A stretch of DNA of 64,000 bases from a virus (lineage: Duplodnaviria; Heunggongvirae; Uroviricota; Caudoviricetes), in IMG/VR virus record IMGVR_UViG_3300037419_003079. One strand, given 5' to 3'. Position 1 is the first letter of the stretch; every line of letters starts with the position of its first letter. The notes under the pieces are model-generated. The model had not been told where the DNA came from and searched no databases. It was given only the letters and a program-made list of their open reading frames with translations. The position numbers and the translations under genes were made by a program. Shown here piece after piece: positions 2,953-54,700 of the stretch.

Positions 2953-3349
2953 TGTACAACTCTCCTAATATTTCAGGGAAAATCTCTGACCAGTCATCAC
3001 TTATTCTTTCAATGTCGCTTTCTTCGCACTCACTTCCAAATTGAATTTCCATAAATTCCAATCCTCTATCTAGTGCCTTAACACTATGCAGACTTCCAAT
3101 TGGAATATCCATATTAGAACCTTGTTTTACAAATCTTACTTCTCCATCTTGCACAAAAAGTCCTTCTCCATTAATAACTGTCCATACTTCTTGACGGTGA
3201 AAATGTTTTTGATAACTAATGTGACAATGTGGATTAACAAAGATTCGTTTAATCTTGCAATGCTTTCTGCCTCTGATTTGAAAATTAAGTACTTCATAGC
3301 TACCCCATCTAGTAGGGATAATTGTGTTTAATTCTTCATTTTTAATCAT
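2945..3349 (-). CDS. cupin-fold protein
   Basis: 134 aa. The HxH...E...H-like region (HCHISYQKHFHRQEVWTVINGEG ... SLHSVKA) is consistent with a cupin metal site. Confidence 0.55.
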   Translation of the reverse strand: MIKNEELNTIIPTRWGSYEVLNFQIRGRKHCKIKRIFVNPHCHISYQKHFHRQEVWTVINGEGLFVQDGEVRFVKQGSNMDIPIGSLHSVKALDRGLEFMEIQFGSECEESDIERISDDWSEIFPEILGELYNG

Positions 3350-3381
3350 ATCAAGTACCTCCGTTTTTGTTTATATTTATA

Positions 3382-3409
3382 TTATAAATGTTTTATAAAA
3401 AATTGTCAA
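3382..3409 (-). promoter_or_regulatory. sigma-A consensus promoter (TTGACA-17-TATAAT) for the cupin-tdk-nuclease-PQ operon
   Basis: Reverse complement reads CCTTGACAATTTTTTATAAAACATTTATAATAT. Confidence 0.75.
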
Positions 3410-3471
3410 GGAATAATATTTGAATAACTACATATAATATTATTGGAGAGGCTGTGCCATTAGTCCTGTCC

Positions 3472-3501
3472 TTGACAAAACGTGTGTTCTTATGGTAAAA
3501 T
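3472..3501 (+). promoter_or_regulatory. divergent sigma-A promoter (TTGACA-18-TAAAAT) for 3524..3796
   Basis: CTTGACAAAACGTGTGTTCTTATGGTAAAATAG sits ~25 nt upstream of the RBS of the plus-strand gene. Confidence 0.65.
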
Positions 3502-3523
3502 AGACTCATAAGGAGTGATATAA

Positions 3524-3796
3524 ATGGCAAACAATAGAGACAATAAAATAGTACACATCGACCCAATATATATAAAATACCGTAAGATGTGGAAAGAAAA
3601 CAGATGGCAGTTCAGTGGAGATTTGGTTAAGTTAACAATAAAGCAAAACAAAGTTGGATTAGACAATATAGAGAAACATGCTATGGATACGATGAATAGA
3701 GTGATTAACGAAAACGATGGTAAATGGACAGAAGGATATGAATACGATAACGGTATACTTAGTAAGATAAAAAATAATAGAGATAAGAAGAAATGA
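3524..3796 (+). CDS. hypothetical basic protein (90 aa)
   Basis: Own promoter, AAGGAG RBS and own terminator. It is the only plus-strand gene in the left arm. Confidence 0.6.
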   Translation: MANNRDNKIVHIDPIYIKYRKMWKENRWQFSGDLVKLTIKQNKVGLDNIEKHAMDTMNRVINENDGKWTEGYEYDNGILSKIKNNRDKKK

Positions 3797-3821
3797 CCAC
3801 TTTATAGTGGTTATTTTTTTG
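3796..3821 (+). terminator. rho-independent terminator
   Basis: ACCACTTTATAGTGGT stem-loop followed by TATTTTTTT. Confidence 0.75.
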
Positions 3822-3835
3822 TTTAAATTTCCCTT

Positions 3836-3868
3836 TAAAAAAAGAGCCTAAGTAAATTACTTGGCTCT
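3836..3868 (-). terminator. rho-independent terminator after DHFR gene
   Basis: AGAGCC...GGCTCT stem overlapping the stop codon. A7 on the plus strand gives U7 on the minus-strand transcript. Confidence 0.65.
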
Positions 3869-4339
3869 ATCGTAAACTTCAAATATTAAGTCATATCCAT
3901 TATCAACTTCATGAGTTCTTCTTAATTCCTTCCACTCACTGAAATCTACCATAGGGAAGTAAGCGTCAGCACCTTCTATAACAGTGTGAACATTTGTTAT
4001 GTATAGTCTATCTGCATACGGTAAAAATTGTTCATATATACTAGAACCACCAATTATAAATGTATCTAAAAATTGAGACTCTTTAGCTGTCTTTAAAACC
4101 TTATCTATATCATCAGTAACGACAATGTTATCTGTTTCTTTCATAGTTTTACTTAATACTACATTGATTCGGTTTGGTAGTGGCTTTCCTATACTTTCAT
4201 AGGTATTCCTACCCATTACCACTATATGACCTTCTGTTATACGCTTAAAGTAAGCTAGGTCTTTTGGCAAGTGCCAAGGTAGTTCATTGTTCTTTCCTAT
4301 TGCATTTTTTCTGTCCTTACATACGATTAAATTAATCAT
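3857..4339 (-). CDS. folA: dihydrofolate reductase
   Basis: 160 aa. N-terminus MINLIVCKDRKNAIGKNNELPWHLPKDLAYFKRIT is a classic DHFR signature. Confidence 0.9.
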   Translation of the reverse strand: MINLIVCKDRKNAIGKNNELPWHLPKDLAYFKRITEGHIVVMGRNTYESIGKPLPNRINVVLSKTMKETDNIVVTDDIDKVLKTAKESQFLDTFIIGGSSIYEQFLPYADRLYITNVHTVIEGADAYFPMVDFSEWKELRRTHEVDNGYDLIFEVYDRAK

Positions 4340-4523
4340 CTCTTTCTGCCTCCTTGCTGACCATTGCTGATATTACCTCTATAATTCCTAATAGTATTAA
4401 AGATAAGGTGTGGGACATTGCGACACAAACTATCTCGCTAACATCTCTAGATACAAAAGAAGTTCTCACCGAGAATAAAGCTATAACGGTAAGAACTATC
4501 CTTGCAAAATTAAACCTACTCAA
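4332..4523 (-). CDS. possible small membrane protein between thyA and folA
   Basis: 63-aa hydrophobic ORF that exactly fills the thyA-folA gap and overlaps both neighbours. It has only a TTG start and no clear RBS. Confidence 0.3.
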   Translation of the reverse strand: MSRFNFARIVLTVIALFSVRTSFVSRDVSEIVCVAMSHTLSLILLGIIEVISAMVSKEAERDD

Positions 4524-5447
4524 CTACAAACCTACAGACACATTACCTTTAATTGGAGGAAATGGGTCATATCCTTCTATTTCAAAATCATCAACTTTAT
4601 AATCGAAGATACTATCAGGTTTTCTTTTGATTATCAATTTAGGTAACTCTTTAGGTTCTCTAGTTAATTGTAATTTTACTTGCTCAATATGATTATTGTA
4701 GATATGAGCGTCACCTATTGTATGTACGAAATCTCCTACTTCTAAATCACATTGTTGTGCTATCATATGAGTTAATAGTGCATAACTTGCAATATTATAA
4801 GGGATTCCTAAGAATACATCTCCTGAACGCTGATATAACTGACAAGATAACTTTCCATCAGCTACATAGAACTGGAATAAAACATGACATGGTGGTAAAG
4901 CCATTTCTTCAATCTGTCCTACATTCCATGCACTAACAATTAATCTTCGACTGTTAGGGTTTATATTGATTTGTTCAATAAGATTTGAGATTTGGTCAAT
5001 GGTAACTGCTACAAACATTTCGTCATCGTAGTTAAATTCTGAATCAGCATACCAACTTCTCCATTGAGAACCGTAGATAGGTCCGAGGTCTCCCTCCCAT
5101 ATCTTGTGGTCATAGTCTCTAATCATTTGAACATATTCTTTTTGATTAAGTTCTGTATTAGGGAATCTTTCTTTGAAGTTTCTGTATGCGTCAGGATTCC
5201 ATATATTAACTCCATTGTCAACTAGATATTTAATATTTGTGTCTCCTTCTAAGAACCAAAGTAGTTCATGAATAATTCCTTGTAATCTAACTCCACTCAT
5301 ATCTTTTGTTGTCATAAGTGGAAATCCTTTTGATAAGTCATATCTCATTTGATATCCGAAAACTGAGATAGTTCCTGTTCCTGTTCTATCTCCTTTTTGT
5401 GTTCCGTTTTCTAATATGTGACTACATAAGTCATGATATTGTTTCAT
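4524..5447 (-). CDS. thyA: thymidylate synthase (ThyA family)
   Basis: 307 aa with a PPCH catalytic-Cys motif ([13 protein letters not shown]). The adjacent DHFR argues for a genuine dTMP synthase. Confidence 0.85.
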
Positions 5448-5785
5448 TGTAACCTCTCCTTGATAGACTGATAAACATCGTCCTTTACTTTGTATACTGC
5501 AACTGTTTTATTTGTAACTAAACACTGTCTTTTTCCAATTACTTCGACAATGCCCATAGATTCCATTTCGTTTAATCTAGGGTGTGTATTGTTACGCTCA
5601 GGAGAGCGAAAGAAACCAATGCTGTGCATTTCAGTTGCTAACTCACTAGCAGTTACTCCTTGTGGGAAACAAAGCAACTCAGTGAAGACCTGAGATTGCC
5701 TAGTTCCTAATGTTTTAATAACTTCGTTAAATGACTTTCGTCTAGTTTGATTAGTTATCATATTAAAAACCTCCAAAGTCACCAA
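5444..5785 (-). CDS. winged-helix (MarR/ArsR/PadR-like) DNA-binding protein
   Basis: 113 aa. Helix-turn-helix-like segment (TASELATEM) followed by a beta wing. It overlaps thyA by 4 nt. Confidence 0.45.
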
Positions 5786-6240: not shown

Positions 6241-6855
6241 AAACTCTAAGCTTGAGATTAACTCGTCTGCTACACCTAATTCAATAGATTCGTCACCGAA
6301 GAAGAACCATTCTTCTTTGTACTTATCTTTGTATTGCTCAGGAGTAATCTTTGTGTTGCCTAAGATATAAGCCTTAACTCGTTCCTCTTGACGCTTTTGA
6401 AACTCAACTTGGTCGATAACCTGACCTGTAGTTCCTGACGCACCTGATGAACCTTGGTGAATTAAGACTACTGAATCTTTGTAAGTGAAACGCTTATGTC
6501 CTGCGATAAAGATTAATCCTCCTGCTGACCAAGCCTTACCTAAGTTATATGTATAAACAGGTGTTTTACTTAACTGAATAGTATTGATGATAGTATTACA
6601 TGCTACTAAATCTCCACCGTAACAGTTGATAAAAATCTTAATTGGTTTGCGTTGCTCAACTGGTAAGTCTTTGTCTTCTTTGTTATAGCGAATGATATGT
6701 TCAGCGATTTCTGCGATAATATCGTCTTCAACTACTTCGGGCAAGTATAACTCACGGTTCTCAAGTTTTTCTGCATATAGTAATTCGTCAACCTTTGATG
6801 TTGTGTTCATGTTTCCTAATTGTAGTAATAATTTGTTTTGATTCATGCCATTCAC
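6238..6855 (-). CDS. ClpP-like serine protease (Clp protease proteolytic subunit family, paralog 1)
   Basis: 205 aa. Ser-His-Asp arrangement: KAWSAGG (Ser) and LIHQGSSG (His). Not at the prohead-protease position. Confidence 0.75.
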   Translation of the reverse strand: MNGMNQNKLLLQLGNMNTTSKVDELLYAEKLENRELYLPEVVEDDIIAEIAEHIIRYNKEDKDLPVEQRKPIKIFINCYGGDLVACNTIINTIQLSKTPVYTYNLGKAWSAGGLIFIAGHKRFTYKDSVVLIHQGSSGASGTTGQVIDQVEFQKRQEERVKAYILGNTKITPEQYKDKYKEEWFFFGDESIELGVADELISSLEF

Positions 6856-8895: not shown

Positions 8896-9837
8896 TTACT
8901 TAGTTCCTTTGATTGGTAAGTTGAACAACATATTACCATTGTCACCAATTACTAGGTTCTCAGGTAATTTAATTTTACCTTCTGCTAAACCTTTAGCTAA
9001 TGTTTCTTGAATTTCTAATTGTTTCATCTCTGCTAATGTAGCCATAGCTTGCTTCTTTTTCTGTGCTTGTAGTAATTCAGATTGTGCTTTAGCCTCATTA
9101 GTAGCGTTGGTAATTTTTTGTGCCTCTTGTTCTGCCTTAGCAGTAACTTTTGCTGTTAATGCGTTTTGTACAGCCTCGTCAGAGTAAACTAACTCACCTT
9201 TATAACCAATGTTAGAAATAGTAATACCTTGCTCTTTGAAATACTTAATGACATCTACACTAACTTCATTGATAATGTCAGCCTTGTTAGCACGAATTTC
9301 GTCCATACTACGCTTAGAGAAAGCCTCAATCATTTTCGTTTCTAAACGGTTACGAATTTCATTATCCATGATTTCAGATAAGTGCTTACCTTTGTATGTA
9401 TATAAGAACTTAGGTGTGTCCTCAGGGTGAATAGATGAAGTAGCAGAGATACCTTGTGAGAACTTAATTGAGTCACGAGATTCCGACTTAATAACTTTGT
9501 CTCCAATCCACTCACGAGTCTCAGGGGAACGATTGATTTTTACAACTGAAACAGTGTCAATGTATTTTACTTGCCAGTATCTACGACCTACTTGGATTTC
9601 TTTTTGAGGAATTTGGATTCGCTTACTAGCAACCATGTTCTTCTCTAAGAATTGAACTGAATCGAATTGTTGTTGGTCAGAAGTCTTACCTTCTAACGGT
9701 AATACGAAAGCAGTCTCATTAGCGTCAATAGTGACGAACTTAGGCTTGTTATAAGGCTTAACACAACCTGTTAATGTAGTTGTTAAAGCAATACCTACTA
9801 CTAAAGCACCAATTTTTTTACTTGTTTTCATTTGCAT
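8896..9837 (-). CDS. SPFH/band-7 (stomatin/prohibitin-like) lipoprotein
   Basis: 313 aa. Lipoprotein signal MQMKTSKKIGALVVGIALTTTLTG-C, then an SPFH core, then a coiled-coil tail (AKAEQEAQK ... ELLQAQKKKQA). Confidence 0.75.
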   Translation of the reverse strand: MQMKTSKKIGALVVGIALTTTLTGCVKPYNKPKFVTIDANETAFVLPLEGKTSDQQQFDSVQFLEKNMVASKRIQIPQKEIQVGRRYWQVKYIDTVSVVKINRSPETREWIGDKVIKSESRDSIKFSQGISATSSIHPEDTPKFLYTYKGKHLSEIMDNEIRNRLETKMIEAFSKRSMDEIRANKADIINEVSVDVIKYFKEQGITISNIGYKGELVYSDEAVQNALTAKVTAKAEQEAQKITNATNEAKAQSELLQAQKKKQAMATLAEMKQLEIQETLAKGLAEGKIKLPENLVIGDNGNMLFNLPIKGTK

Positions 9838-10092: not shown

Positions 10093-10713
10093 TTATTCAA
10101 TTGCGAAATTTCCTGCTTGAACATCTTCTCTTTTCAGACGAGTAATAGCAATCTTAGATTCTACTACACCTAGCTTAATAGCCTCGTCAGTATCAAAATA
10201 CCAATCTTTGACTGTATCTTGCATATTAGCAATCTCGTCTGCACGAATATTAGTTCTTTCTAAGACAAATTTATTAACCTTGCTTCTCATAAACTTCTCT
10301 ACAGCCTCCATGCGTCTTTGGTGTTCTGTGAAAGTACCACCTTGACCATATGAAATGTCATGGAACATAAACACTGTATGTTCGTATGAATAACGCTTAT
10401 GTCCTGCTAGTAAAATTGGGATACCCATACTAGCTACCATTCCTAATCCAATAGTATGTACTGGTGTCTTACTATTTCTGATGATGTCCATCAATCCTAG
10501 ACCTGATGTTACAGAACCACCGGGAGTATTGATAGTCAAGAAGATAGGGAATTTACTTCTGTCGTGATTGTTATAAGTAGCCTTCTCTTTTGCGTCATCA
10601 ATTCGATTGATTTCTACAATCTTCTCGATAATGGCTTTTGTAGAGGTATTACTAACTTCTTCTGATAAAAATAAGTTACGGTTGATTTCGTTAACTGGAA
10701 CCTGTACTGTCAT
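10093..10713 (-). CDS. ClpP-like serine protease (paralog 2), first gene of the protease / small-membrane-protein / SPFH operon
   Basis: 206 aa. TINTPGGSVTSGLGLMD ... MVASMG (Ser) ... MFHD (His). ClpP/NfeD-N (clan SK) organisation. Confidence 0.8.
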   Translation of the reverse strand: MTVQVPVNEINRNLFLSEEVSNTSTKAIIEKIVEINRIDDAKEKATYNNHDRSKFPIFLTINTPGGSVTSGLGLMDIIRNSKTPVHTIGLGMVASMGIPILLAGHKRYSYEHTVFMFHDISYGQGGTFTEHQRRMEAVEKFMRSKVNKFVLERTNIRADEIANMQDTVKDWYFDTDEAIKLGVVESKIAITRLKREDVQAGNFAIE

Positions 10714-10868: not shown

Positions 10869-10942
10869 TGGCACGGATTGTAAGAATCGAACTCACATCA
10901 AAGGTTTTGGAGACCTTTGTTTTACCATTAAACTAAATCCGC
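10869..10942 (-). tRNA. tRNA-Trp (anticodon CCA), 74 nt with encoded CCA
   Basis: Hand-folded from the sequence: acceptor GCGGATT/AATCCGT (G1-U72), D arm GTTT-AATGGTA-AAAC, anticodon arm AAGGT-CTCCAAA-ACCTT (U33, C34C35A36, A37), 4-nt variable loop, T arm GTGAG-TTCGATT-CTTAC, discriminator G, CCA. Confidence 0.75.
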
Positions 10943-11463
10943 ATAAGAGGGAGTGCATTAGCACTCTTGGCTCACCAACTGTTTTTATAGAGAAACAGTA
11001 AACGTATTGAGAGAGGTTTTCCGTGCCTCTCCCATTTAATCGGAGGTAGGTTGCGTGGGGAAAATCAACAAAACCCAACGCACGTTTAAGGGTATCGTTT
11101 AAAAGCACGCTTTCCTAGTTATATTATATAGCGAGTGCTAGGTCACTACCTCAGATACCCGTGAGGCAAGCATGTTTATACTCTACACTTCAAGAGATAC
11201 GTTGTAGCGATTCGAGAGGAATGACCATATTGCCGTTTATCTAGGATAAGTCCGTGTAATACAGGCAAACTACCTTGAATCGCATAATTACAGTGCTAGG
11301 CTCATACCAAGAACCAACCTAGCTTGTATTCTCCTCAACTTTTACTTAACTCGTGTCAGGTGTATCGCCTTAGATTAAGTTTTATTGGAGATTACGGTTG
11401 TCCGTTTTCAAACATAGACCTGATACAGGAGGTACGGACGGTAAAGTTTCATGTATTGTGATT
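10943..11463 (-). ncRNA. GC-rich ORF-free structured region upstream of tRNA-Trp (candidate pre-tRNA leader, additional non-canonical tRNAs, or large structured ncRNA)
   Basis: 520 nt with no convincing ORF and clearly higher GC than the flanks. Multiple long stem-loops (e.g. GTCCGT...ACGGAC at 11399-11438, GCGTGGGG...CCCAACGC at 11052-11086, GAGTGC-ATTA-GCACTC at 10951-10966, GGGTATC...GATACCC at 11090-11160). It is co-transcribed between gene 11464..11787 and the terminator at 10811-10840. Confidence 0.4.
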
Positions 11464-11787
11464 TTACTTCTTGTTAAAATAAAGAACAGTTGCATAGTAA
11501 GTAGTTGTTCCGGGAGCGATTGCATATACTTCTTCGCCTTTTTCTAAGTATAATTCGATTTCTCTAGAATTATTTCCTGCATTAATGCTCTCCACTGGAA
11601 TAAGCATTGAATTATTGTTGATGTTCTGTAGTAATTCCGTGTAATTAGGATTTTGGAAGTCGATATTAAGGATTTCTTTTCCTGCAATTCTTACAGGTTG
11701 ATTATCAACGAAGATTTTGACATATCCTCTGTCTCCAACTGCTATAACACTAGGCGTTGCATTTACTGGTTTCACTTCTACTCTCAT
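11464..11787 (-). CDS. hypothetical protein (107 aa)
   Basis: ORF with tandem promoters upstream. Confidence 0.55.
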   Translation of the reverse strand: MRVEVKPVNATPSVIAVGDRGYVKIFVDNQPVRIAGKEILNIDFQNPNYTELLQNINNNSMLIPVESINAGNNSREIELYLEKGEEVYAIAPGTTTYYATVLYFNKK

Positions 11788-11957: not shown

Positions 11958-11976
11958 AGGGTTATTACGTTAGAAA

Positions 11977-12300
11977 GGAGGTTTAGCGTTGCCTCCTTCC
12001 ATGATTATTGACATATCATAGTTAGTGTCTGTATTCTATTCCATGATATACACGCCAATGTGGTAGTAACCAACACTTCGATTGGTCTTTGTTGAGAGTA
12101 GAACTATATGGTGAGAGCCTAAACCCTTCATCTCTCTGCACAATGCCCGCTACCGTCACCTTCCATTGTGTTTCCTAGTTCGTAGCTACTGAACTAATCG
12201 CCACACCTTGCGAGTATGACTTCCCTTTCGGGCATAACAGGACTAATCCCCTTCACCTGTCTGTGTCGTCCCCTTTCTATCTTTCCTATGACGACTTTCC
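11977..12300 (-). ncRNA. candidate ~300-nt GC-rich non-coding RNA transcribed from promoter 12314-12342 and ending at hairpin 11977-11996
   Basis: No ORF. GC well above local background. Perfect TTGACT-17-TATAAT promoter directly upstream on the minus strand. GGAGG-N10-CCTCC hairpin at the 3' side. Internal long hairpin TAGTTC-AGTAGCTAC-GAACTA. Confidence 0.35.
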
Positions 12301-12313
12301 TAATTACTATGTA

Positions 12314-12342
12314 ATTATAACATACTTATAATATAAAGTCAA
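12314..12342 (-). promoter_or_regulatory. sigma-A consensus promoter (TTGACT-17-TATAAT) with no ORF downstream for ~300 nt
   Basis: Reverse complement reads CCCTTGACTTTATATTATAAGTATGTTATAATTAC. Confidence 0.7.
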
Positions 12343-12348
12343 GGGTAA

Positions 12349-12633
12349 TTATCTTACGCTCTGACCTGAATGAATTTTTCTAATAGCCTCTAGTGCCTCA
12401 ATATTCTGAGGTTGATTACGCATAATCCAAAGCCTTAATTCATTATATTTTAATGCGAATTTATGTTCTAACTCTCTGTCTAGTTGCTCTTTCCAATAAT
12501 CTGCTACTGCTCTAGTTGTAAAGAAAATGTCGTGCATGGATTTGTCAGATAAATGTATGCTTTCATTTGTTTGAATGTGGTAGGCAATCTTTCTTGCGTC
12601 ATATTCCACTCTAGGGTCATACTTTCTTTTCAT
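12349..12633 (-). CDS. hypothetical protein (94 aa; start refined to ATG with AAGGAGG RBS)
   Basis: The ORF-track ORF was trimmed to the internal ATG at 12633, which has a strong RBS. No recognisable motif. Confidence 0.5.
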   Translation of the reverse strand: MKRKYDPRVEYDARKIAYHIQTNESIHLSDKSMHDIFFTTRAVADYWKEQLDRELEHKFALKYNELRLWIMRNQPQNIEALEAIRKIHSGQSVR

Positions 12634-14516: not shown

Positions 14517-15294
14517 ATTTAACTTCAAAACTGTAAGTCTCTCTTGGTAGTGCAATTCTCATAAATGAATCTTTAACCTCTAAGTAATGTTCTTCTAGGT
14601 CATCTCCGTAGTGCATTATGAAAATATTTCGTTTATACTTGTTTGGCAATGATTTAAGTTCTTCAAGTGAAGCGTGCACCTTACCATCATAATCAAACAT
14701 TTGGCAATCATGGAAAATAGCTTGTGCACCGTCTTTAACTGCCATCTTAATAAATTCTTCGTTAAACAATGAATCAGATGTGTAAACTATGTAATCGTGT
14801 TCTGAGATAATTAAGCCATATGACTTTTTCTTAGGGATATGCTCAGTGCTATAGACTGAAATCATGCAATCGTTAAAGAAGAAGTATTGGTCTCTATCGT
14901 TAACAATTTCATATGTAAAGTAATCATCAAATTTCATTTGTCTATCTAATTCGCCTTCTACCATAGTTCCTTTAAGGACTTTATTCCACAAATCATTTTT
15001 TAAATCTACATGAGGGAAAATAAGGTGTGGCTTTTTCTTTAAAACATATCGTCCAAAGAATCCTGCCTCCTCTAGTCCGTATACATGGTCTCCGTGGAGG
15101 TGAGTAATAAAAATAGCGTCAATATCTGACCATGAGAACTCTGATTTAAATAAATCATCAGGTGTTGTTCTTCCACAGTCAATCATCATATTCTTTTTTA
15201 CTTCTCCATTTGTTACAGTTAACACTGCACTGTTATTGCCAAAGTTCTTAGCAAATGCACTTCCTGTTCCTAGAAAAGTTAAGTCTATTTTCAT
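14515..15294 (-). CDS. metallo-beta-lactamase-fold hydrolase (RNase Z / cyclic-nucleotide phosphodiesterase-like; Apyc1-like candidate)
   Basis: 259 aa. HxHxDH motif (ITHLHGDHVYG) plus downstream His/Asp ligands. Last gene of its operon. Confidence 0.8.
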   Translation of the reverse strand: MKIDLTFLGTGSAFAKNFGNNSAVLTVTNGEVKKNMMIDCGRTTPDDLFKSEFSWSDIDAIFITHLHGDHVYGLEEAGFFGRYVLKKKPHLIFPHVDLKNDLWNKVLKGTMVEGELDRQMKFDDYFTYEIVNDRDQYFFFNDCMISVYSTEHIPKKKSYGLIISEHDYIVYTSDSLFNEEFIKMAVKDGAQAIFHDCQMFDYDGKVHASLEELKSLPNKYKRNIFIMHYGDDLEEHYLEVKDSFMRIALPRETYSFEVK

Positions 15295-38638: not shown

Positions 38639-38730
38639 GAAGGTAAAGGGTAGGGTTAGGTTTTCAGGTGAACTATACCCTTCCCTATTTTTTATATAAA
38701 CGTACAAATTTTAAGAAGGAGGTTAAAGAG

Positions 38731-41700
38731 ATGGCAGGAAAAGACTTTAAGTATATTATTAATACCGAGTTAAAGTTAAATACAGGCTCTCTAAAAAAAT
38801 TATTAGAAGATGTAAAAGATGTAGATACTTCCATACGCAACCATTTCAATAAAACTGGTAAAGGTGGTATCAAACTACCTATCAGTATTGATAAAGGTGC
38901 TAGTTTAAATAACTTACAATCAGAAGTAAAGGCAGTAATTACCAACTTCAACAGAAGTCAAGCACCTAAGATTAAAATCAAAATGGAACTTGATAATAAA
39001 AGTGCTGAGGCTTTAAAGCAACAAGTAGACAATGTTAAGCACCATCTTAACAATATTAATAATAGCAAAGAAAATGTAAATATTAAGACCTCTCTTAAAG
39101 TTGACAAGGGCGAAAAAGAAAAAGTACAGAAACAAGTTGGCGACATCAAAGCAACTATGACTGTGGGATTAAAAATAGACCAAAACGATTTAAGAGTTGT
39201 TAAAGGTCAAATAGAATCTTTAAGACAAGAAGTTGTAAACACTAGTAGAACTAGAACAACTAGAAACGGTGAGGTAGTAGGCAGTTTCCGTGACCATGTT
39301 AACGATAGAACTGCGTCAGTTGGCTCTAGAAGTACAGCAGACAAAGACTTACTTAATGCTAAGGCTCAGGCTCAGGCAGAGAAGGATATGGCAAGTGCTA
39401 GAAGGCAAAATGCTCAAGCACAAAAAACTGAATTACAAGTTGAACAGGCTATCACAAAAGAAAAGGAAAAGCAAGCTAAGTTAGACAGAGAAAATACAAA
39501 CCTTTTCAAAATGAGAGACCAATCAACTAGAAGATTGACTAAGGCACAAGATACTCTAACTCAACTAGAGTCAAAGGCTAACGGTTCTAATTGGAGAACA
39601 CTATCTACTAATGACCAAAAAGCATTATCAGGTCAACTAGACACATATAGAAAAAAGGTAGAAAAGTTCCAAAGAGAAAGAGATAAGATTGACAATGCAA
39701 TCTTAAACCAATTACCTAACAACTATTACAATCGTAAGCCATTAGTTGACCCTATGAACGCAACTAGAGGCAGAGTTGTAATGAATACCAACTCTAATGT
39801 TCAAGCACAGATTCAATCACAAATAAAGGCTCAGAGACTAGCTGAACAACAAGCACAAAAGGAAATAGAAAGAGCACATAAGCAAGCTGACGCTCTAAAT
39901 AGAAAGTATGACCAAGACCGTGCTAGACAACAACAACAAGCTAGGAGAGACGCTGAGTGGAATGGTGCTGTACATAGATACGGTGGCAACAGACAAAAAA
40001 CCATTCTTGATGATGAAATGGTTTTAAGAAATCCTGACGCTAGTAAGAATGACAAGTTAGAGGCTCTTGAAAGATTAAAGCAAAATGCAGGTGGATTAGC
40101 TAGGGAAATGAATCAAAACCTAACTCGTTCATTTGAAGTATTTAATCGTAATGCTGATGGAACCATCTCTAGAACTAGAACCGCACAGTATGAGTTCACT
40201 AGATTCGGAGACGCTGTTGACCGTTCTAACAAGTTTATGAGTACTCTTAGAAACACTATGCAATATGCAGGTATTACGACTGCTTTCATGGCTATGGGTC
40301 AAGGTATTCAAATAGCTGTTCAAAGTATGATTGATTTTGAGGCTCAAATGTCTCGTATTCAATTGCTAACTACAGACCTAAGAGATGGTGGTCTAAACCA
40401 AGCATACTCAGGTTTCGGATATAGTAAAAATAACATAAAGCATAATACTCGCAGAGATGTATCAAATCTTTCTCAAAAATACGGAATGTCTGCTACTGAC
40501 ACTGTAATGCCAGTTTATCAACAAGTTATGGCTAGAAGTGAGCTGATTAAAGGTAATGGAGATAAGCCTAGCCCTGTGTTGGCAAATAAGATTACAGACC
40601 AAATCTTAAAATATAGTGCAATTACATTAGGACCTAATGCAGGTGCAGATGATGTTAATCGTATATCTCAAGATATGTTATCTCTATATCAAGGGCTATA
40701 CAAAGGAAAAGGTCAACAACATGTATACGACATGGATAGATTCGTAGACTTCATGACTCTAATGAATGGTAGTGGTGTCAACACTAACAACATTATGGAC
40801 GCTATGAGTGAAGTTGCTCCTGACGCTATTAAGAAAGGTATAGACCCTAGGAGAGTAGCAGGTATGCTAGGTGCTTACAATTTATCTGATAGTGATTCAA
40901 GTGGCTCTAATATGACAACAGTTGCTAAAACATTCTTCGGTGGATTAGCTAGATATAAAGATAGTGAGTCTATCCAATCAGGTCTGAAAACACTAGGCAT
41001 TGATACAACTCAAAACTATTCTCAAGAAGAATTATTAGACTTAGTTGTTAAGAATTACAAAGGTTTGAGTGATACACAAAAAGAATCTGTATCTAGAGAC
41101 TTGTCATCTGTTAATGGTAAAGGTATATCGCAAGCACCTAAGATTCAAAAGTTCTTAGACGCTAGTGGTTCTGAATATGCTGAAACATTCAAAAAGAATA
41201 TGACTAGCACTGGATTAGCTGACAATGCACTTGATACTTATCTAAAAACTGCTAAAGTTCAGTTCGGTCAATTAAAGCAAGAATTGACTGAGACGGTTGA
41301 ACTATTAGCTGAACTAGGTGCTTTAGATGGTCTTAAAGCATTGCTTGGTGGATTCAAAGTTGCTGTTCAAACAGTAAATGGTTTCCTAGATATAATTGTT
41401 AGACTAGGTGACGCTAGTGAGAAAATATTTGGATTCAATATTCCTAAATATGTGACACAAATTTTAGCATTAGCAGGTGCATTTAAATTAGTAACTGCTA
41501 CGATGAAAAAGTTTCAACTTGGAACTGGATTGCTTCAAGGTGGTAGTTCATTAATAGGTGCTCTTACTCAAGGAGAAATGATTACTCGTGCCTCTTTCAA
41601 CGGAAGAACTCAAAGGAAAGTTAATGTAGAAGTTCCTCATACTGGAAAAGGTTCAGGCGTAGGAAATGTTATCGGTCAGGCAGTAGGTTGGGTACTTATG

Positions 41701-44700
41701 GGAGGCAATCCTTTCAAAAGAGGTGCTAATGTTGCTAAAGCAGGTGAAGTTGGAGGCAATGTAGCAACAAACTTATTCTCTAAACTAGGAACTTCTTTAA
41801 AAGGATTACTTCCAATACTAGGTAGGTTTGCAGGAATCTTGCTTAGATTAAGTGCTATAGGTGCTGTCATAGGAACTGCTGTTTGGGTAGGTAAGAAACT
41901 ATGGGACATGAATCAAAAGCATGAGGCTAATGTAAGGAAAGGCGAGTTCAAAAACTTCAACAAGGTATATGGTGGTGGAGAAGAAGACAAAGAGAAATTA
42001 GCTAAGGACTTAAATACTTGGAAAGACTGGAATGACAAAAACAAAACTGTAATAGTTTCTAGAAATGGCTCATTCCACGGAAACCCAATGCCTTCGAGCG
42101 AACCACCTAAGAAAAATAAAATGCCCAAGGAGATTGAAAAACTTCAAAAACAATTCTCTGAAATGGGAATTACTTACTCAACTGTCGCAGGATTAAACGG
42201 TAACAACACTAGTACTATAGCGTACAATGCCGAAGGAAAAGATGGCAAGATATATAAACAACATTTTAATGCCGATGACAAAGGCGGTTGGAAGGATATG
42301 ATTGACACTTTAGGTGCTAAGGGCTTAGATAAAGACGCTCAAATAGCAGAGAAGTGGAAAATCGCTAACAACGAGGCAATTAAATATCAAACAGAATTAG
42401 GTATAATTAATGACTTAACTGAGAAGTTCAATAGAACTATGAACAGACTAGGTTACGATATGTCTAAAATTGACTTTAACTTTATGGGTGCTGAAAACTC
42501 GTCAAGTGCTAGCATTGCTAAGATTAACCTTATCAATGGTGCTATGTCTGATTTAAGTGGAACTATTACTGAGTTAACTGACAAAGGTAACCACTTTAAA
42601 GAGCAAGCAGGAATTTATGACACTAAAATTACTGGTCAAAGAAACAAGATTATAAAAGGAGGTTTAATGTCTAAGGCAGAAATGGACGACTTAGACCAAA
42701 CTTATAAACTTGCCTATGATTCAGGAAACGCAGACACTATCACTAACCAGTATGAAGTAACAGATAAAACTAGAGACAAACTTAAAAAAGCAGGTATGAG
42801 TAAGAAAGATATAGAAAAAGAACTTGCTAAGAGATATGCAGTTAGTGAATATCTGTCATACAAACAATCTAATGCAGGATTTGTAGACGCAGACAAAGAA
42901 ACAGAGGCTCAAATTCTACAAACTAATATGGCTATACTTGAGAGACAACAAGCATTGAAACAGTTAACTGCTCAATTACTAGTGTCTCAATCTCAGATTG
43001 ATGTATTCAATGCTAAGATTAGTGCTATACAGTTTGGTACTGGTAAAGCCAAAACTCTACTTGATTTATCGAATACAGACGAAGAAAAAATCAAGAGAAG
43101 TGGAGACCTACTAAAATCTCAATCTACTGAGTTATCTGCATACAGAGCACAATTAAATTCTGTCTACGCTCAAATGAGTAGAATTAAGGCTCAAAATGGA
43201 GGTCAAGATTTCTCAATCGACACACTATATAATCCGGGAGAGAACGGACTATCAGCAGAGCAAAATGCTTACAAGCAACTACTAGAACAACAATATAGTA
43301 TTCATGACAATATTAACTCTACAACAGTTGCTATGAAGGAACAAGCAGACCAAGTTAAAGAAATGGTGCTTAATTCTGATAAGTATGCTGATGTGTGGGA
43401 AAGAGTTCAAAACCGTATTCAACTAGTAAAAGACCTAAACAACGAGATTGCTAGCATTAAAACTGACCTATCATTAGTTAACAATTTCTCTAATATAAGA
43501 AGTGCTGTTACAGGAGGCTCTTATATTCAAGATAGAAATAGTAGATTAGAAGGTATCCGTGATAGAGGATTAGATGGATACGAGAAAATCATGACTTCTC
43601 TTAAAACTTATGCAGGAGACGAACAGAAACTTGTTGAGGCATATGATGAAATCAATAAGTCTATGGGTGGAGAATTTGACAATGCGTTCATTCAACCACT
43701 TAAAGACTTAATACAAAATGATTTCACTAAAGCAGGAAACCTTATTAGTGATGGTGCAGGTAAACTAGACCAAGTACTAACATATTGGGCAAACAATATA
43801 ACTAGTGGACTTCTAACTCAACAGTCTCAAAATTTCCAATCTGATTTAGCAGGAACAACTGGAACTGGTGGTTCAGTAATTCCGGGATTCACTGGTGGTA
43901 TCAATACTAAAAATGCTACTGACGCTGAAAAACTAGACGCTTATATTACTCAGCAATTCGGGTATAAAAAAGGAACTAGAGAGTTTAACTCTATGAAGAA
44001 ACAAATGCAAGCTAGTATGACTCCTGCTGAAATCAAAAAAGAAGTTAATAGAGGAACTATTTCGGTTGGTAATAATAAGGCAGTTGCAGATTACACTGAA
44101 AAAATAAATTCTTATTTTAGCAAAACTGGAAGAACTAAACTTCAAGGAACTGGAAATATGTTCGTTCAAGCAGGTGCTAAATATGGTATTGACCCAATGT
44201 TCTTAGCGTCTATCGCAGTTCAAGAAACTGGTGGTAAATCAGGAGTAATCAATGGTGCTTATAATGTTGGTAACATCAAAGGTACTGGTAAAGCTAATGC
44301 TGAGTGGAACGGTACTAAGTGGGTTAATCCGGGAGACGGACTAACATATAGAAAATACGGTTCTCTACAATTAGGTATTAATGACTTAGCTAGGTTACTA
44401 AAAGATGTATATATCAGCCAAGGATATGATACTATTCCTAAAATTAACAGCAAGTATGCAGAAGACCCTAACTGGAAATACGGTGTAGCTAGTATCTACT
44501 CTAGTATGTCAGGTACATCTAAAGAGTCATTGCTAGGTGGAACAACTATGTCTGCATTAGGTGGTGGTGGAGGTACATCAGTATCATCATCTTACGGAAC
44601 TATTAGAAAAGGTTCTAAAGGAGCGTCAGTTAAAGAACTTCAAAAAGCATTAGGGGTTAATGCTGACGGTATCTTCGGTTCTGCAACTGAAAAAGCTGTT

Positions 44701-47700
44701 AAAAGCTATCAAAAGAGTCATGGGCTAACTGCTGACGGTATTGTAGGTTCTAAAACTTGGAGTTCATTAGGTATAGGTGGAGGTTCATCTTCTTCAAGTA
44801 CATCAGGTGTTGGAAAAGGTGGAATGGCAGTACTTAATAGTCTAGTTAATAAATCTGCTTCTCAAGGAGGTCTAGGATATTCTTGGGGTGGAGGTCATGA
44901 TAAAGGAGATTGGGATTCATTTATCAAAAAAGCTAAAGCTGACTGCTCAGGACTTGTTCAACATTTCTATAGAGAATTTGCAGGAGTAGAATTAGGAACT
45001 GGTTCGTCTAATAGCATGTGGCAAAATAGCCAAGGTAAAAGGATTACAAATAAAGCAGACCTACAAGTTGGTGATGTAGTCTATTTTGGTAGTGGAGGCA
45101 AAGTAACTCACACTGGTATCTATGCAGGAAACGGTCAATACATTGGTATGAACAGTGGAGGTCCTAATAAGAGTGGAGCACCACTTAAAAAGGACGCATT
45201 ACGAAGCGACTTTGTTGGAGGCAAAAGATATGACGGTGCTAATGCTAGATTAACATCAGGAGGCAGTGTTGCAGGTGCTCTAGGTGCAGATGTGCCAACA
45301 GTAGCACAGATGATTAAAACTGCTTTTGGAATGTTTAAAGAGGCAATCGAGGCTGAAATGGCTATAAACAATGTTGCAACAATTAAAGAGTCATACAATA
45401 AAGACAAGACATTGGGTTATGGTCATGGTAATATCCGTGATGTACTAGGTACAACTGGTAGATTAGGTGCTTATGATAGAAACTATCAAGCTAGAGAAGA
45501 AATCTATGACGCTAAGTACGGTAATGTAGAGCAAATGAAAGCACTTTCTAAAACTCGTGCTCAATATGTTAAGGACGCTAATAGTGCATTGAAGGCAGGT
45601 AAAACTGACGAATATAATGCGAATAAAGAGGCTGTATCTTCTATTGACAAACTTATTGCTACTTTAAAAGAAAACAATAAGAAATTAGACGAGTGGGATA
45701 AAGAGTTAGTAAAAGCACTTCAAGGAGACCCTAGATATAATGCTAGTAATGCAGGTTACTACATAAAAGGTGGGTACAATAAGTTAGCTACTATGCAAGA
45801 CGGAACTACTGATTACTATCGTACAGTTGAAGAACTTAATGGTATGAATAATCAGTACATGACGACTAAGAAACGATTATCAGTAATGGGTGAATTTTGG
45901 AATACAACAGGTCTTGAAACTGGTCACTACAATGCAGTAAAGAGAAAGTCAGACCAAGAGGACATCAATGTTGCGTTTGTTAAACTGAAAGAAATTCAAA
46001 AGGTTTTAAATTCATTCGCTCAAGGAACTCAGAATTGGTACTCTACTCTTGAAGATGTAGTTGCAGTATATCAAGAACTTCGTGAACTTGATGAAAAGAG
46101 ACTTGAAAATGCTAAGGCATACTTTGAGATGACTGGTCAAGGTGCTCAAACATATATTAATCAACAAGCATACCTGAATAGCAAAAGTTACTCTGAAAAC
46201 AGAAGAAACCTTAATGTTGCTAAACAAACCCTTACTAATGACAAACTGAAAAGAGCGTCAGGTGCTAAAGGTATGGACGAAAATCAACAACTGGCTACAC
46301 TACAAATTATAGCAGGTTTGCAAGACGCTTTAATTAGTCAAATGAATGAGTATCGTCAAGCTGTTATTGGTGCTTTTAAAGCAGGTGCTATGTCTATTCA
46401 AGAGTACATAGATAGAATGTCTGACCTTCGTGATGTGCAAAATGAACAGAAAGAAAATGCTCTTAAAATGATTGATTCTATCTCTCAAGGTTTTGAGCAA
46501 TCCCTGTCAAATGCACTAGCAAGTGGATTCATGGGCAACATGGATTCTACTCAAGGTTTCATAGATGGTATCAAGCAGACATTAGCAACAACTATAGCTT
46601 CTCAACTATCAGCTACGCTACTTAATAACACTGGTCTACAGAAAGTTATTAATGACTTAATCACTTCGGTAACTACTGCGGCTACAACTGGAAACCCTGA
46701 TGATATTGCTAATATGTTTAACAATAACAACTTCGGAGACCAAATTAATAACGCACTAGCACCGTTCCTACCTTTAATCGAACAAATTGTTGCCTCAACA
46801 GATGGTATATTCTCTATCATGAAAGACCAACTGTTTAATGCACCACAAGGATTCAAAATTGACCAATACTTATATGACCAAGCTAAAGGTAAGAGTTTTG
46901 AAGGTGTTAAGAACTGGCAACAAAATGGTGAAACTAATGAGGCAGGTTCTCCTATTGGAGGAGTTGGAAGTAATACTCCTATAGTTACACCACCGGGAAC
47001 AACACCGGGAGGAGTTCCGGGAGGTACATCTAAACCACCAACAGGGACACCGGGTTCAACTGGTGGAACACCTAACACTGGTAAGGGTGGAGCAGGAGCA
47101 CCTGATAGTGGAAGTGCTGTTAAGAATCCTACAACTGACAACTCTAAGGTTAATACACCTCCTAAATCTTCGGGTGGCAAAGGTTCATCAGGCTCAGGTC
47201 ATAATCATGGGACTGTTAACAAAGGAGATAGAGGTGAGGCTGTTAAGGAAATCCAAAGGGCTGTAGGAGTTAAGGCAGACGGTATCTTTGGTTCTGATAC
47301 TGAAAGAGCTGTTAAGGCTTACCAAAAGAAACACGGACTTAAAGCAGATGGTGTAGTTGGTAAGGACACTTGGGCTGTTATTCATAAGGGTAACGGTGGA
47401 AGTAGTTCGGGTAGCAAAGGTAATTCTAATTCAGGTAGCAAAGGAACTACTAAGACTACTAAGCAAGCACTTAATTTCCGTAGTAGTCCGGGAGGAAAGG
47501 TAATGAGTGTATTACCTAAAGGTGCTAAGGTAAATTACCTAGGAATGGAAAAAGGTTGGGCGAAAGTAAGCTACAAAGGTAAGACAGGTTATGTTGGTAA
47601 AGATTATATTTATCATACTGGTGGTATCGCAGGAATGATGAATTTTGCTAATGGTCAACAACTTAAAGCGAATGAGATTCAAGCTATTATGCAAAAAGGT

Positions 47701-51754: not shown

Positions 51755-54700
51755 ATGAGTAAGTTTAACAACAGATACTTAAAATATTCAACAAACACAA
51801 ATGACACCTACGCTGATTACGGTGAAGTAGTAAGTGTAATTAGTGACAAAATAGTTAATCTAGATATGGGTGGAACAGGGTACATTCTAGAGGCTGTTAA
51901 CTGTGATAATTCATATATACCTAAATTAGGTGATTGGGCTACTGTTGAATGGAGAAATGGTCAGCCATTAGCAAAAGGTGGAACTAGCATGTCTACAGGA
52001 CTGCGAGACATCAATGATAATGTTACTATTATTTCTACAAGTGACATAGCTAGTGGTGTAGTCAACTCAGACCACATCAGAACAAATACGATAGAGGCTA
52101 GACACATTACTGCTGAATCTATTCAAGCAAACCACATTTCAGCAAACTCTATTAATGCAAACCACATTACTGCTAACGCTATTACTACTGTTCAGTTGTC
52201 TGCTAATAGTATCACGACTGACAAGATACAAGCAGGTGCGATTCAAGCACAGAATATTCAAGCAGGAGCAATAGGTGCAACGCAAATTAGTGCTAACTCC
52301 ATTAACGCAACGCATATCACAGCAAACGCTATTCAAACTCAACATATTTCAGCAAACGCTATTCAAGCAGGACAAATAAGTGCTAACGCTATCCAAACTC
52401 AACATATCTCGGCAAACACTATTACTGCTAGTCAGATTAAAGTTGACGCTATCAATGCTAGCCATATTTCTGCTAACTCCATAACTTCTAGTGAGATTTC
52501 TGCGAACGCAATCCAATCAGTTCACATTAGTTCTAATGCTATCAATTCAAACCATATTAATGCAGGAACTATTAATTCAGGTCATATTAGTGCAAATGCA
52601 ATTCAATCACAACATATTTCAGCAAACAGTATTGACGCTAGCCATATTAAAGCAGGGGTAATTAATGCTACACTAATCTCTGCTAACGCTGTTCAAGCAC
52701 AACACATTTCAGCAGGAAGTATTACATCTACACATATCAGTGCTAATGCAATACAATCTCAACATATCAGTGCAAACAGTATTCAAACTAATCACATCTC
52801 TGCTAACTCAATAACTGCTAGTAAGATTAGTTCAGATTCAATCTTTGGATACCATATTGTTGCTAATAATATTACTGCAAGTCATATTACTGCAAATGCG
52901 ATTCAAGCACAACATATATCTGCAAATAGTGTTCAATCTGCTCATATTAGTGCAGGCTCTATTAATGCAGGTCATATCGTTTCAAATGCGATTCAATCAA
53001 ATCACATTTCTGCTAATTCAATTCAAGCAAGTCATATAACAGCGAATGCAATCCAAACGCAACACATTTCAGCTAATACGATTGTTGGTAGTCAAATTAA
53101 AGCTGATACGATTAGTGGTAATCATATCACTGCTAACACTATCCAAGGTAAGCATATTCAAGCTGACACAATTAGTGGAAACCACATTACTGCAAATAGT
53201 ATTGATACTAAGCATGTTAAGGCAGGAAGTATTACTGCTACACAAATTTCTGCTAACTCTATTACTTCTAGTCACATCTCTGCTAATAGCGTTCAGTCTC
53301 AGCATATCTCGGCTAACTCAATTCAGTCAAGTCATATCTCAGCTAACTCTATTAATGCAGGTCATATTATCGCTAACTCAATTCAATCTAGTCATATTAG
53401 TGCAAATTCTATTCAATCAGGACACATTTCTGCTAACTCTATTCAGACTCAACATATTAGTGCAAATACAATCACTGGTGGAATGATTAAATCTAATGAG
53501 ATTTCAGGTAATCACATTCAAGCAGGAAGTGTAGACACAGACCATTTGACGGTGGGAAGTAGAAAAGAAGGATTGCTAGGACAATACTTTACATATAACT
53601 CTGCAAGTGGAAATAGTAAATTCCAAGTTTACAAGGGTAGTCAAATAGACCCTACTATTAACTTCTCATGGGGAACAGGTTCTCCTGCTATTGTAGGTCA
53701 GAATGATAGTTTCTCAGTAAGATGGCAAGGATTCATCTATGCACCTGAGACAGGGACTTACTCATTCCATTTAACTGCTGATGATTTAGGAAAAGTAGTT
53801 GTCAATAACACTGTTGTTGTAAATCAACTTTCTTATTCAGGTGGGGTAGAGCAAACAGGGACTATTTCTCTTACACAAGGAAACTGGTATCCTTTCTTAG
53901 CAGAAATGACAGAAGGTACTAGTGGAGCAATGGCAATAGTAAAATGGACAAAACCATCTCTAGTAAAAGAAGTTGTTCCTTCTAAATATTATACACAAGG
54001 TAACACTGTAATTGATGGTCAAACTATTACTACTGGAAGTATTACTGCCTCTGCAATTCAAGCAGGTACAATTACTGCTCAATCAGGTATTCTAGCAAAT
54101 GCAGTTATTCAAACAGCTAATATTGCTGACGGTGCAATTACAAATGCCAAGATTGGTAACGCTGAAATCAAAACTGCTAATATAGCAAGTGGTAATATCA
54201 CTAACGCATTGATTCAAGACGCTACTATCCAATATGCTAAAATAGCAAGTGTAAACGCTGATACAATTACAGTTGGCAAAATAACTGGTACTCAAATTAG
54301 TGGTAGCACTATCGAAGGTCAGAATATCAAAGGTAATACAATATCAGGTAATCACATCGTAGCTAACTCCATTGATTCGCTACATATCAAGGCAGGTGCT
54401 ATTACTACTACAGAACTTTCTGCACAATCTATTACATCAGATAAAATTCAAGCAGGTTCAATTACTGCTGATTCTATTCGAGTTGGTAGTATTAGAGCAG
54501 AACATATTTCTACTGTAGGCTTAGACGCTAACATCGTTTCTGTTTACAATCCAACTACAGGTCAAACATTAATCGGTGGAGGATATTTAAGAGTAGACGG
54601 TTTAGATGTAGGGGTAGTACAATCGGATAACCTAGTTGGTAACGGATTATTCTTAACAGCCTCGTCTGCATTTGGTTCTAAGAGAGATAATCCTTATGGT

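Follow-up and report, generated by a model that had tools for sequence, protein, structure and literature searches.

What does a phage transcribe from a near-perfect promoter that has no gene behind it? The question is raised by a 64,000-nt stretch of DNA (the window) from IMG/VR record IMGVR_UViG_3300037419_003079, a virus of the Caudoviricetes in which genes are oriented on the minus strand throughout positions 1 to ~17300. A sigma-A-type promoter (TTGACT-17-TATAAT with an extended -10, TGtTATAAT; 11/12 consensus matches in a promoter scan) lies at 12342-12314 on the minus strand, starting 7 nt past the stop codon of a gene encoding a 94-aa protein (12633..12349), and reads into a segment free of open reading frames (ORFs). 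A first-pass annotation had singled out this orphan promoter and suggested that the ~300 GC-rich nucleotides behind it constitute an independently transcribed small or non-coding RNA rather than an untranslated region (UTR). The promoter and the compositional contrast are both as it described, with a G+C content of 0.47-0.48 at 12299-12075 compared to 0.28-0.36 in the flanks. We show from comparative alignments that the core of this segment is maintained by compensatory substitutions in eight phage lineages, and conclude that positions 12307-11967 of the minus strand (~340 nt), a unit labelled RNA-1 here, are very probably a gene for a trans-acting, highly structured non-coding RNA belonging to a family without a match among the models of Rfam 15.

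Compensatory substitutions in eight lineages maintain an RNA core

Relatives of RNA-1 were reached through a neighbouring gene, the nucleoside 2-deoxyribosyltransferase (NDT) gene located two genes upstream. The IMG/VR contig L006 encodes an NDT that is 79% identical to that of the window, is syntenic with the window, and has an ORF-free gap of ~360 nt at the same place, preceded by a TTGACA-17-TATAAT promoter; blastn detected no similarity between this gap and the window segment. Contigs L017, L046/47, L048, L049, L050-52, and L070-75 were reached from further NDT relatives (66-76% identity) and from one relative of the 94-aa protein, and every one of them carries an ORF-free stretch after the NDT gene or the 94-aa homologue. 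RNA-1 is thus known from eight lineages of uncultured large Bacillota-type phages (the window and seven others), and in every example found it lies 5′ of, and in the same orientation as, an RNA island made up of tRNAs and other ORF-free modules. The homologues share loop motifs (UUAGGAAA, UGA..GGGGAUUAUU, GCUA, CGGUAGCGG, and GGGUUUAG), and in the stems between these motifs the letters differ while complementarity is kept; the stem of the P4 hairpin, for example, reads GUUC/GAAC, UACC/GGUA, AUGUG/CAUAU, GGGG/CCCC, GAGAG/CUCUC, AGAGGU/ACCUCU, or GGAA/UUCC across homologues.

Applied to the raw sequences, MAFFT and RNAalifold misaligned the stems and recovered a single helix, and for this reason a hand-derived structure, a covariance model (R1), and a model-guided alignment were adopted. 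R1 was seeded on L050/L051 only and contains no information from the window. It matches the window on the minus strand at 12303-12108 (72.7 bits, E ~5e-23) and the other lineages with 44-133 bits, and finds neither a second match in the 64-kb window nor any match in ~300 kb of DNA from other phage loci, some of which have an NDT at 48-57% identity. Covariation was counted on the alignment made with the model (A8; 10 distinct sequences). Standard pairs fill 97.0% of the 302 helix cells, and double-sided compensatory change is seen in 27 of the 32 pairs. The covariation score is 0.935 compared to 0.23 for shuffled alignments, with 0/500 shuffles attaining the observed values, and pairing falls to 34-52% when partners are slid by 1-3 columns. 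Among the helix pairs, G·U or U·G occurs 17 times and A·C or C·A never; therefore the selected molecule is the minus-strand RNA, the strand read by the promoter, and not the DNA or the opposite strand. Given that a model free of window information finds the feature, and that its helices covary, we judge it to be real: on this clear comparative signal, it is a genuine structured non-coding RNA gene.

Two points weigh against so firm a conclusion. First, the alignment behind these counts was fitted to the model, and two further checks were added for that reason. A free RNAalifold prediction on the same alignment returned the same five helices, with 25/30 pairs compensatory, and an unconstrained scan of column pairs (runs of at least 4 paired columns) returned precisely those five helices and nothing more. 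Second, the single-sequence folding energy of the RNA strand is not significant (z = -1.2). Since the opposite (plus) strand of 11965-12310 folds with a stronger value (z = -2.6), z-scores of minimum free energy (MFE) were dropped as evidence.

The conserved part is a 5′ core of ~200 nt (12303-12091, minus strand, as are all coordinates of RNA-1 that follow) consisting of hairpins P1, P2, P4, P5, and P6 and a variable insert, P3. It opens with the single-stranded motif UUAGGAAA (12303-12296), nearly invariant in A8. P1 (GUCGUC/GACGAC, 12295-12290/12270-12265), which RNAalifold predicts independently, has double-sided changes in 5/5 modelled pairs, is paired in 100% of cells, and encloses a 19-nt loop bearing a conserved GGA..GAU.AG..GGG. 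P2 (ACAGG/CCUGU, 12260-12256/12241-12237), likewise paired in 100% of cells, closes the conserved loop UGAAGGGGAUUAGU; three of its five pairs are compensatory and the other two are invariant G-C pairs. The weakest helix is that of P3 (12236-12197, closing stem 12234-12231/12202-12199), which has many gaps and is paired in 82.6% of cells. This insert is expanded in L017, L049, and the window (where it forms small GAAA-type hairpins), is a simple hairpin in L048/L050, and is absent or reduced in L006/L046. P4 (UAGUUC/GAACUA, 12196-12191/12181-12176), the TAGTTC-N9-GAACTA stem that the earlier annotation had picked out, is one of the conserved helices, with compensatory changes in 5/7 pairs; its loop, AGUAGCUAC, contains the palindrome GUAGCUAC. 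A conserved GGAAA (12175-12171) joins it to P5 (CACAAUG/CAUUGUG, 12170-12164/12145-12139), in which 6/6 modelled pairs are compensatory and whose 18-nt loop, with GACGGUAGCGGG, carries a conserved G(A/U)CGGUAGCGGG, including GGUAG at 12154-12150. P6 (GAGAG/CUCUC, 12136-12132/12117-12113; 5/5 pairs compensatory, 100% of cells paired) holds the conserved GGGUUUAG in its loop (12126-12119).

The core ends with the conserved CUACUCUCAAC (12101-12091). Its CUACU (12101-12097) may form a pseudoknot with GGUAG in the P5 loop, and CUAC(C/U) recurs 16-18 nt past the P6-loop motif in 7/8 lineages; the pairing is tentative because the P5 loop of L006/L046 reads GGCAG. A 5′ extension in these two contigs holds an additional GACGGUAG. 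Past the core, a lineage-variable 3′ domain (12090-12003) contains two hairpins predicted from the single-sequence MFE fold only, and the 3′ ~100 nt of RNA-1 cannot be aligned between lineages.

As the first-pass annotation had stated, no ORF follows the promoter: there is none longer than 45 aa on either strand of 12310-11965, and the short ORFs of the segment match no Pfam or PHROG family. The Infernal/Rfam scan that it had recommended gave, with Rfam 15, no match within the segment even at E <= 10; at the gathering score, the only match in the region is a tRNA-Trp (10942-10872), which is also the sole tRNA found by ARAGORN (10869-10942), with no tRNA-like gene in the segment. Among six homologous loci, RNA-1 is matched by no Rfam family at E <= 1. 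Searched with blastn, the segment had zero matches among 50,697 phage records, and a concatenated query of the six homologues matched only in a second RNA module (RNA-2, described below) and not in RNA-1. Contigs identical to the window phage occur in three Logan runs only, and its proteins are < 60% identical to those of cultured phages, the best matches being to large Bacillus and Geobacillus phages; the window phage is novel.

Transcription and 3′ end of RNA-1

The start of RNA-1 is predicted, from promoter spacing only, at ~12308/12307. A near-consensus promoter lies 38-74 nt upstream of the core in five of the eight lineages (window, L017, L006, L046, and L049); in the window phage, host sigma-A RNA polymerase would be expected to transcribe RNA-1 early and strongly from it. 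No dedicated promoter was found before RNA-1 in L048, L050, and L071, where RNA-1 comes straight after the preceding gene, and independent transcription, as claimed by the earlier annotation, would for this reason be a property of most lineages and not of all. The region shows no general enrichment in promoter-like sites, with 20 found compared to 17.3 expected from shuffled sequence. On its 3′ side RNA-1 is bounded, again as first described, by two tandem near-consensus promoters from the promoter scan (11958-11930 and 11913-11884, minus strand), which drive the next gene (107 aa, 11787..11464); the first of the two shares 86% identity with its counterpart in L006.

The element that follows RNA-1 varies. 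In the window, promoters and the 107-aa gene come next; L006, L046, L017, and L050 have a promoter, then Y-RNA-like repeats and a gene for a DUF2828/DUF7788 vWA protein; L048 has two tRNA-like genes; and L074 has RNA-2. Together with covariation in eight lineages and the asymmetry between G·U and A·C pairs, these varied neighbours support the original proposal that the segment is a structured non-coding RNA and not a UTR.

The GGAGG-N10-CCTCC hairpin noted at the end of the segment is the core of a 9-bp terminal hairpin, GGAAGGAGG-(10 nt)-CCUCCUUUC (12000-11992/11981-11973), identified from sequence and the MFE fold. Its purine-rich/pyrimidine-rich form has homologues in L048, L050, L006, L046, and L017, and in most lineages it is followed by AACGU, found at 11971-11967 in the window; the 3′ limit of RNA-1 is placed by the conservation of these two elements in homologues. 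The hairpin is thus real, but termination at it is not borne out, as it is not called by a terminator scan and is followed by no U-tract. In L074 it is missing, and RNA-1 continues through AACGUA into the next RNA module.

Within the 1.5-kb window island (12345-10800), AACGU occurs at 11971, 11824, 11203, 11086, and 10859, which is 5 of the 14 sites that the minus strand has over all 64 kb. It also recurs in the islands of L006, L046, L048, L049, L050, and L074, on the 3′ side of each RNA module or tRNA. Eight islands together (7.0 kb) contain the motif 22 times (3.1/kb), compared to 27 times in 101 kb outside (0.27/kb), an enrichment of ~12-fold, and it nearly always follows the 3′ strand of a hairpin or tRNA, being seen at module ends. 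AACGU may, judging from this distribution, be a processing or punctuation signal, and the 3′ end of RNA-1 would then probably arise by read-through and endonucleolytic processing at this site, not by intrinsic termination. We know of no enzyme that recognises it.

Candidate roles of RNA-1

The P4 loop with its closing pair holds a 6-8-nt palindrome in 8/8 lineages: GUAGCUAC or UAGCUA in the window, L017, L006, L046, and L048, and GCUAGC in L050, L071, and L049. The two registers flank a constant GCUA, and changes in the flanks preserve self-complementarity. In a cryo-EM study of OLE, ROOL, and GOLLD, palindrome-switching loops were taken as evidence for symmetric intermolecular kissing loops (PMC12286853). 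RNA-1 has the self-complementary stretch of at least 4-6 nt in a hairpin loop that characterises such contacts in OLE L9.3, GOLLD L21a, and HIV-1 DIS. Its resemblance to HIV-1 DIS and phi29 pRNA consists in a loop with 6 self-complementary nucleotides (UAGCUA or GCUAGC), with no relationship in sequence or family, and with a contact that is putative in RNA-1. The always-palindromic P4 loop and the invariant large loops suggest a tertiary or quaternary kissing-loop contact. As the loop of the 3′ terminal hairpin also carries GCUA or UAGCUA in several lineages, an intramolecular loop-loop contact is an alternative; P4 could pair in a homodimer or with the 3′ hairpin that carries GCUA, and a partner, protein or RNA, may take part.

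Few large, intricately folded phage RNAs are known. The known cases, ROOL and GOLLD, combine numerous covarying helices with large conserved loops and were recently found to form assemblies of RNA alone; to our knowledge neither has a known protein partner or function. Both are phage or prophage RNAs, often found near tRNA islands, that self-associate via kissing loops (PMC12286853). RNA-1 shares with them the phage and tRNA-island context (in the window, tRNA-Trp lies ~1 kb downstream, and tRNAs or tRNA arrays follow in L048, L006, L046, and L017) as well as the palindromic loop. ROOL and GOLLD are larger, however, at ~580 and 800 nt compared to ~340 nt and a ~200-nt core of six simple helices in RNA-1, their helices and motifs are different, and RNA-1 does not display their multi-pseudoknot architecture. 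Their Rfam models match neither the window region (E <= 10) nor the six homologous loci (E <= 1). ROOL and GOLLD thus appear to be the closest analogues of RNA-1 by context and style, not by membership.

Other RNAs were compared with RNA-1 as well. The likeness to YrlA with Ro60/Rsr is that of a structured RNA beside a vWA-protein gene and tRNA-related functions in four relatives; RNA-1 itself is not matched by the YrlA model and is not closed by a terminal stem, the Y-like repeats form modules of their own, and neither a DUF2828 nor a TROVE gene occurs in the window, hence no adjacent Ro60/TROVE-vWA partner there. The 5′ motif UUAGGAAAGUCG invites comparison with what we take to be the universal GAGGAAAGUCC of P4 in RNase P RNA, for which a site beside tRNA genes would also fit. 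This idea, prompted by AGGAAAGUC, was rejected: no model matches, AGGAAAGUC is only partly conserved, RNA-1 homologues do not conserve GUC, and the strand after AGGAAA pairs locally as P1 and not with a distant 3′ strand. A tRNA or tRNA-like element was likewise rejected, being recognised by neither ARAGORN nor the Rfam tRNA model. Species 1 and 2 of the T4 tRNA cluster are stable non-tRNA RNAs of unknown function that are co-located and co-processed with phage tRNAs; they belong to another phage group, differ in size, and have no detectable similarity to RNA-1, so that the comparison is one of context only.

The first-pass annotation had left the choice between a small RNA and another non-coding RNA undecided, and had suggested looking for base-pairing targets. 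Because RNA-1 is long and tightly folded, a base-pairing small RNA is the less likely of the two, and RNA-1 would act as a folded RNA in trans, not as an antisense regulator. Of the features of a classical trans-encoded small RNA, an own promoter is present in 5/8 lineages and the expected Rho-independent terminator is absent. By analogy with ROOL and GOLLD, the function we favour is that of a stable RNA which serves the tRNA-centred RNA island as a structural element or a decoy. A bolder version is possible, if doubtful: RNA-1 might be a third, smaller class of self-assembling phage RNA beside ROOL and GOLLD, forming dimers or oligomers through the palindromic P4 loop and acting as scaffold or decoy in a tRNA-centred counter-defence island, with AACGU as the site of a dedicated processing endonuclease.

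Further considerations count against RNA-1 as an independently made, trans-acting RNA, and against the role proposed for it. With three of eight lineages lacking one, an own promoter is common and not obligatory. We infer the start, the 3′ end, and the stability of RNA-1, and the proposed function draws on context and analogy. The palindrome switch may possibly represent a single evolutionary event, so that the evidence for dimerisation is thin. As all homologues were found via one neighbour gene, NDT, the association with this locus is partly an ascertainment effect, and two NDT-independent motif scans of IMG/VR yielded only two contigs, both already known. Other approaches have been similarly unproductive. 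Used as IMG/VR queries, the flanking 94-aa and 107-aa proteins yielded zero loci; distant homologues of the 94-aa protein in Goe8, Eldridge, and metagenomic contigs L010-L016 and L018 have no ORF-free segment behind them; exact-pattern scans of metagenome and genome collections gave chance matches in coding regions only; and R1 matches neither the NDT-ClpP intervals of cultured vB_BcoS-136 and PBC2, which are fully coding, nor the tRNA-leader regions of cultured Mater and Eldridge. This could reflect a rare family or overly strict exact-pattern scans.

An alternative that we consider unlikely is that RNA-1 is a tRNA mimic or a ribonucleoprotein decoy of an anti-defence module, titrating a host tRNA or translation factor or partnering a phage protein such as the DUF2828/vWA protein. 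Its setting speaks for this: the island combines tRNAs, Y-RNA-like repeats, and a DUF2828/DUF7788 vWA gene in four lineages, the locus lies downstream of a homologue of the anti-Pycsar protein Apyc1, and cultured relatives have an RNA ligase and a polynucleotide kinase in the same NDT-ClpP interval. The P5 loop AGUCGGUAG, which resembles a tRNA D-loop, is counted here as well. Against it, tRNA, YrlA, and other Rfam models do not match RNA-1 even at E <= 10, ARAGORN finds nothing there, and the window has no DUF2828 gene while four lineages have none adjacent.

It is quite improbable, in our estimation, that RNA-1 acts in cis as a leader, whether as a processive antiterminator resembling HK022 put or Bacillus EAR that permits read-through of the island, or as a regulatory 5′ UTR of the next gene. 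In favour of this, RNA-1 lies directly behind a promoter and always 5′ of the island in the same orientation, and no canonical terminator marks its end. However, promoters start downstream of RNA-1 (two in the window and one each in L006, L046, L017, and L050), and their transcripts would not contain it, which argues against a UTR, a riboswitch, and a put/EAR-type role alike. Moreover, the immediate downstream element differs by lineage, and put is far smaller than an element of ~200 nt and six helices.

A sponge of a factor binding GGA or Shine-Dalgarno (SD) sequences, either CsrA or the anti-SD of the 30S subunit, is in our view highly improbable. An invariant GGA does occur in the 5′ tail, the P1 loop, and the P4/P5 junction, and the terminal hairpin pairs AAGGAGG with CCUCCUUUC. 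Known Csr/Rsm sponges, however, consist of many short GGA-loop hairpins, whereas most of what is conserved in RNA-1 is long covarying helices and non-GGA loops, and the sequence of the terminal hairpin is not kept in all lineages.

We give almost no weight to an element acting as DNA, such as a replication origin, a packaging site, or a palindromic operator array: the segment lacks ORFs, is rich in G+C, and contains several inverted repeats, among them a near-perfect 20-bp palindrome at P4, but its stems vary freely with pairing kept, the asymmetry between G·U and A·C is meaningful for a minus-strand RNA only, conserved residues are in loops and not in half-sites, and a promoter is directed into it.

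An overlooked or decayed coding sequence, such as one for a small protein or the remains of a lysozyme gene, can be practically dismissed: a 45-aa ORF (12159..12022) carries EGFRLSPY, reminiscent of T4-type lysozyme, and one metagenomic gene call in L074 passes through RNA-1, but no Pfam or PHROG family matches even with a frame-repaired peptide, the call spans an in-frame TAG, and the homologues differ through compensatory pairs and indels of lengths not divisible by three. The lysozyme remnant (EGFRLSPY ... GYYHIGV) had been entertained as a candidate in its own right and was rejected, as Pfam support is absent. The gene call in question (L074 678-1310, 210 aa) begins at the 104-aa gene, spans the TAG (990-992), and then runs through RNA-1; it is probably an artefact of the gene caller or of a wrong genetic code on a short contig.

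The RNA island and its significance

Downstream of the 107-aa gene, a second ORF-free stretch that is richer in G+C, RNA-2, occupies 11463-10943 on the minus strand and extends to tRNA-Trp. Over the first ~150 nt (11443-11294), RNA-2 shares 89% identity with L074 and 77% with L048, and the same nucleotides are 70-80% identical to unannotated DNA directly 5′ of the tRNA arrays of the cultured B. megaterium phages Mater, Moonbeam, and Eldridge. RNA-2 matches no Rfam family, and from its position and conservation looks like a conserved RNA module heading phage tRNA arrays. A sub-threshold match to the wcaG RNA motif (10964-11053, minus strand; 27.8 bits against a gathering score of 42, E = 0.012) lies at its 3′ end, before tRNA-Trp.

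Four relatives have a characteristic arrangement downstream of RNA-1 (L006 6282-8220, L046 4770-6697, L017 4745-6695, and L050 4470-6303). Each has a promoter followed by three or four tandem stem-closed units of ~100 nt (ex. GACAC...GUGUC) with a conserved ACAGCAA, one unit having a tRNA T-arm (GGUUCGAGUCC), and then a gene for a ~498-aa DUF2828/DUF7788 (vWA) protein, for which a sequence search of the PDB gave no matches. By analogy, this arrangement resembles that of Y RNAs beside Ro60. A weak match to YrlA occurs elsewhere in L017 (7310-7419; 35.6 bits vs a gathering score of 69).

All RNA-1 loci share a conserved block of genes (thymidylate-kinase-like, metallophosphatase, Apyc1, 3D-domain, and NDT). 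The Apyc1 homologue (PF23023, E = 5e-37) is located at 14518-15294 on the minus strand of the window, ~2 kb upstream of RNA-1. The interval between NDT and ClpP is occupied by the RNA island in the window lineage and by the tRNA-repair pair of RNA ligase and polynucleotide kinase in cultured relatives (3334-5611 in vB_BcoS-136, L082; 14802-17079 in PBC2, L083). In the same early region, the window has two minus-strand genes for ClpP-family proteases (10093-10713 and 6241-6855) and a Band_7/SPFH gene (8899-9837). Its structural module includes two giant plus-strand ORFs (38668-47937, 3089 aa; 51755-60307, 2850 aa), presumably encoding the tape-measure protein and a tail or host-recognition protein.

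With no Rfam 15 match and no blastn copy in sequenced phages, RNA-1 is, by these searches, a new structured phage RNA family, of which we found no earlier description. To the few large folded RNAs of phages it adds a compact example, with a core of ~200 nt, unusually clean covariation, and a simple architecture, which should be easier to probe, mutate, and solve than RNAs of 600-800 nt. It also reveals an organised RNA island composed of RNA-1, RNA-2 (present in cultured B. megaterium phages as well), Y-RNA-like repeats, and tRNAs, in which the common AACGU mark between modules points to a shared processing pathway. If its role does lie in counter-defence or in the manipulation of tRNAs and translation, RNA-1 would extend the list of RNA-based strategies used by phages.

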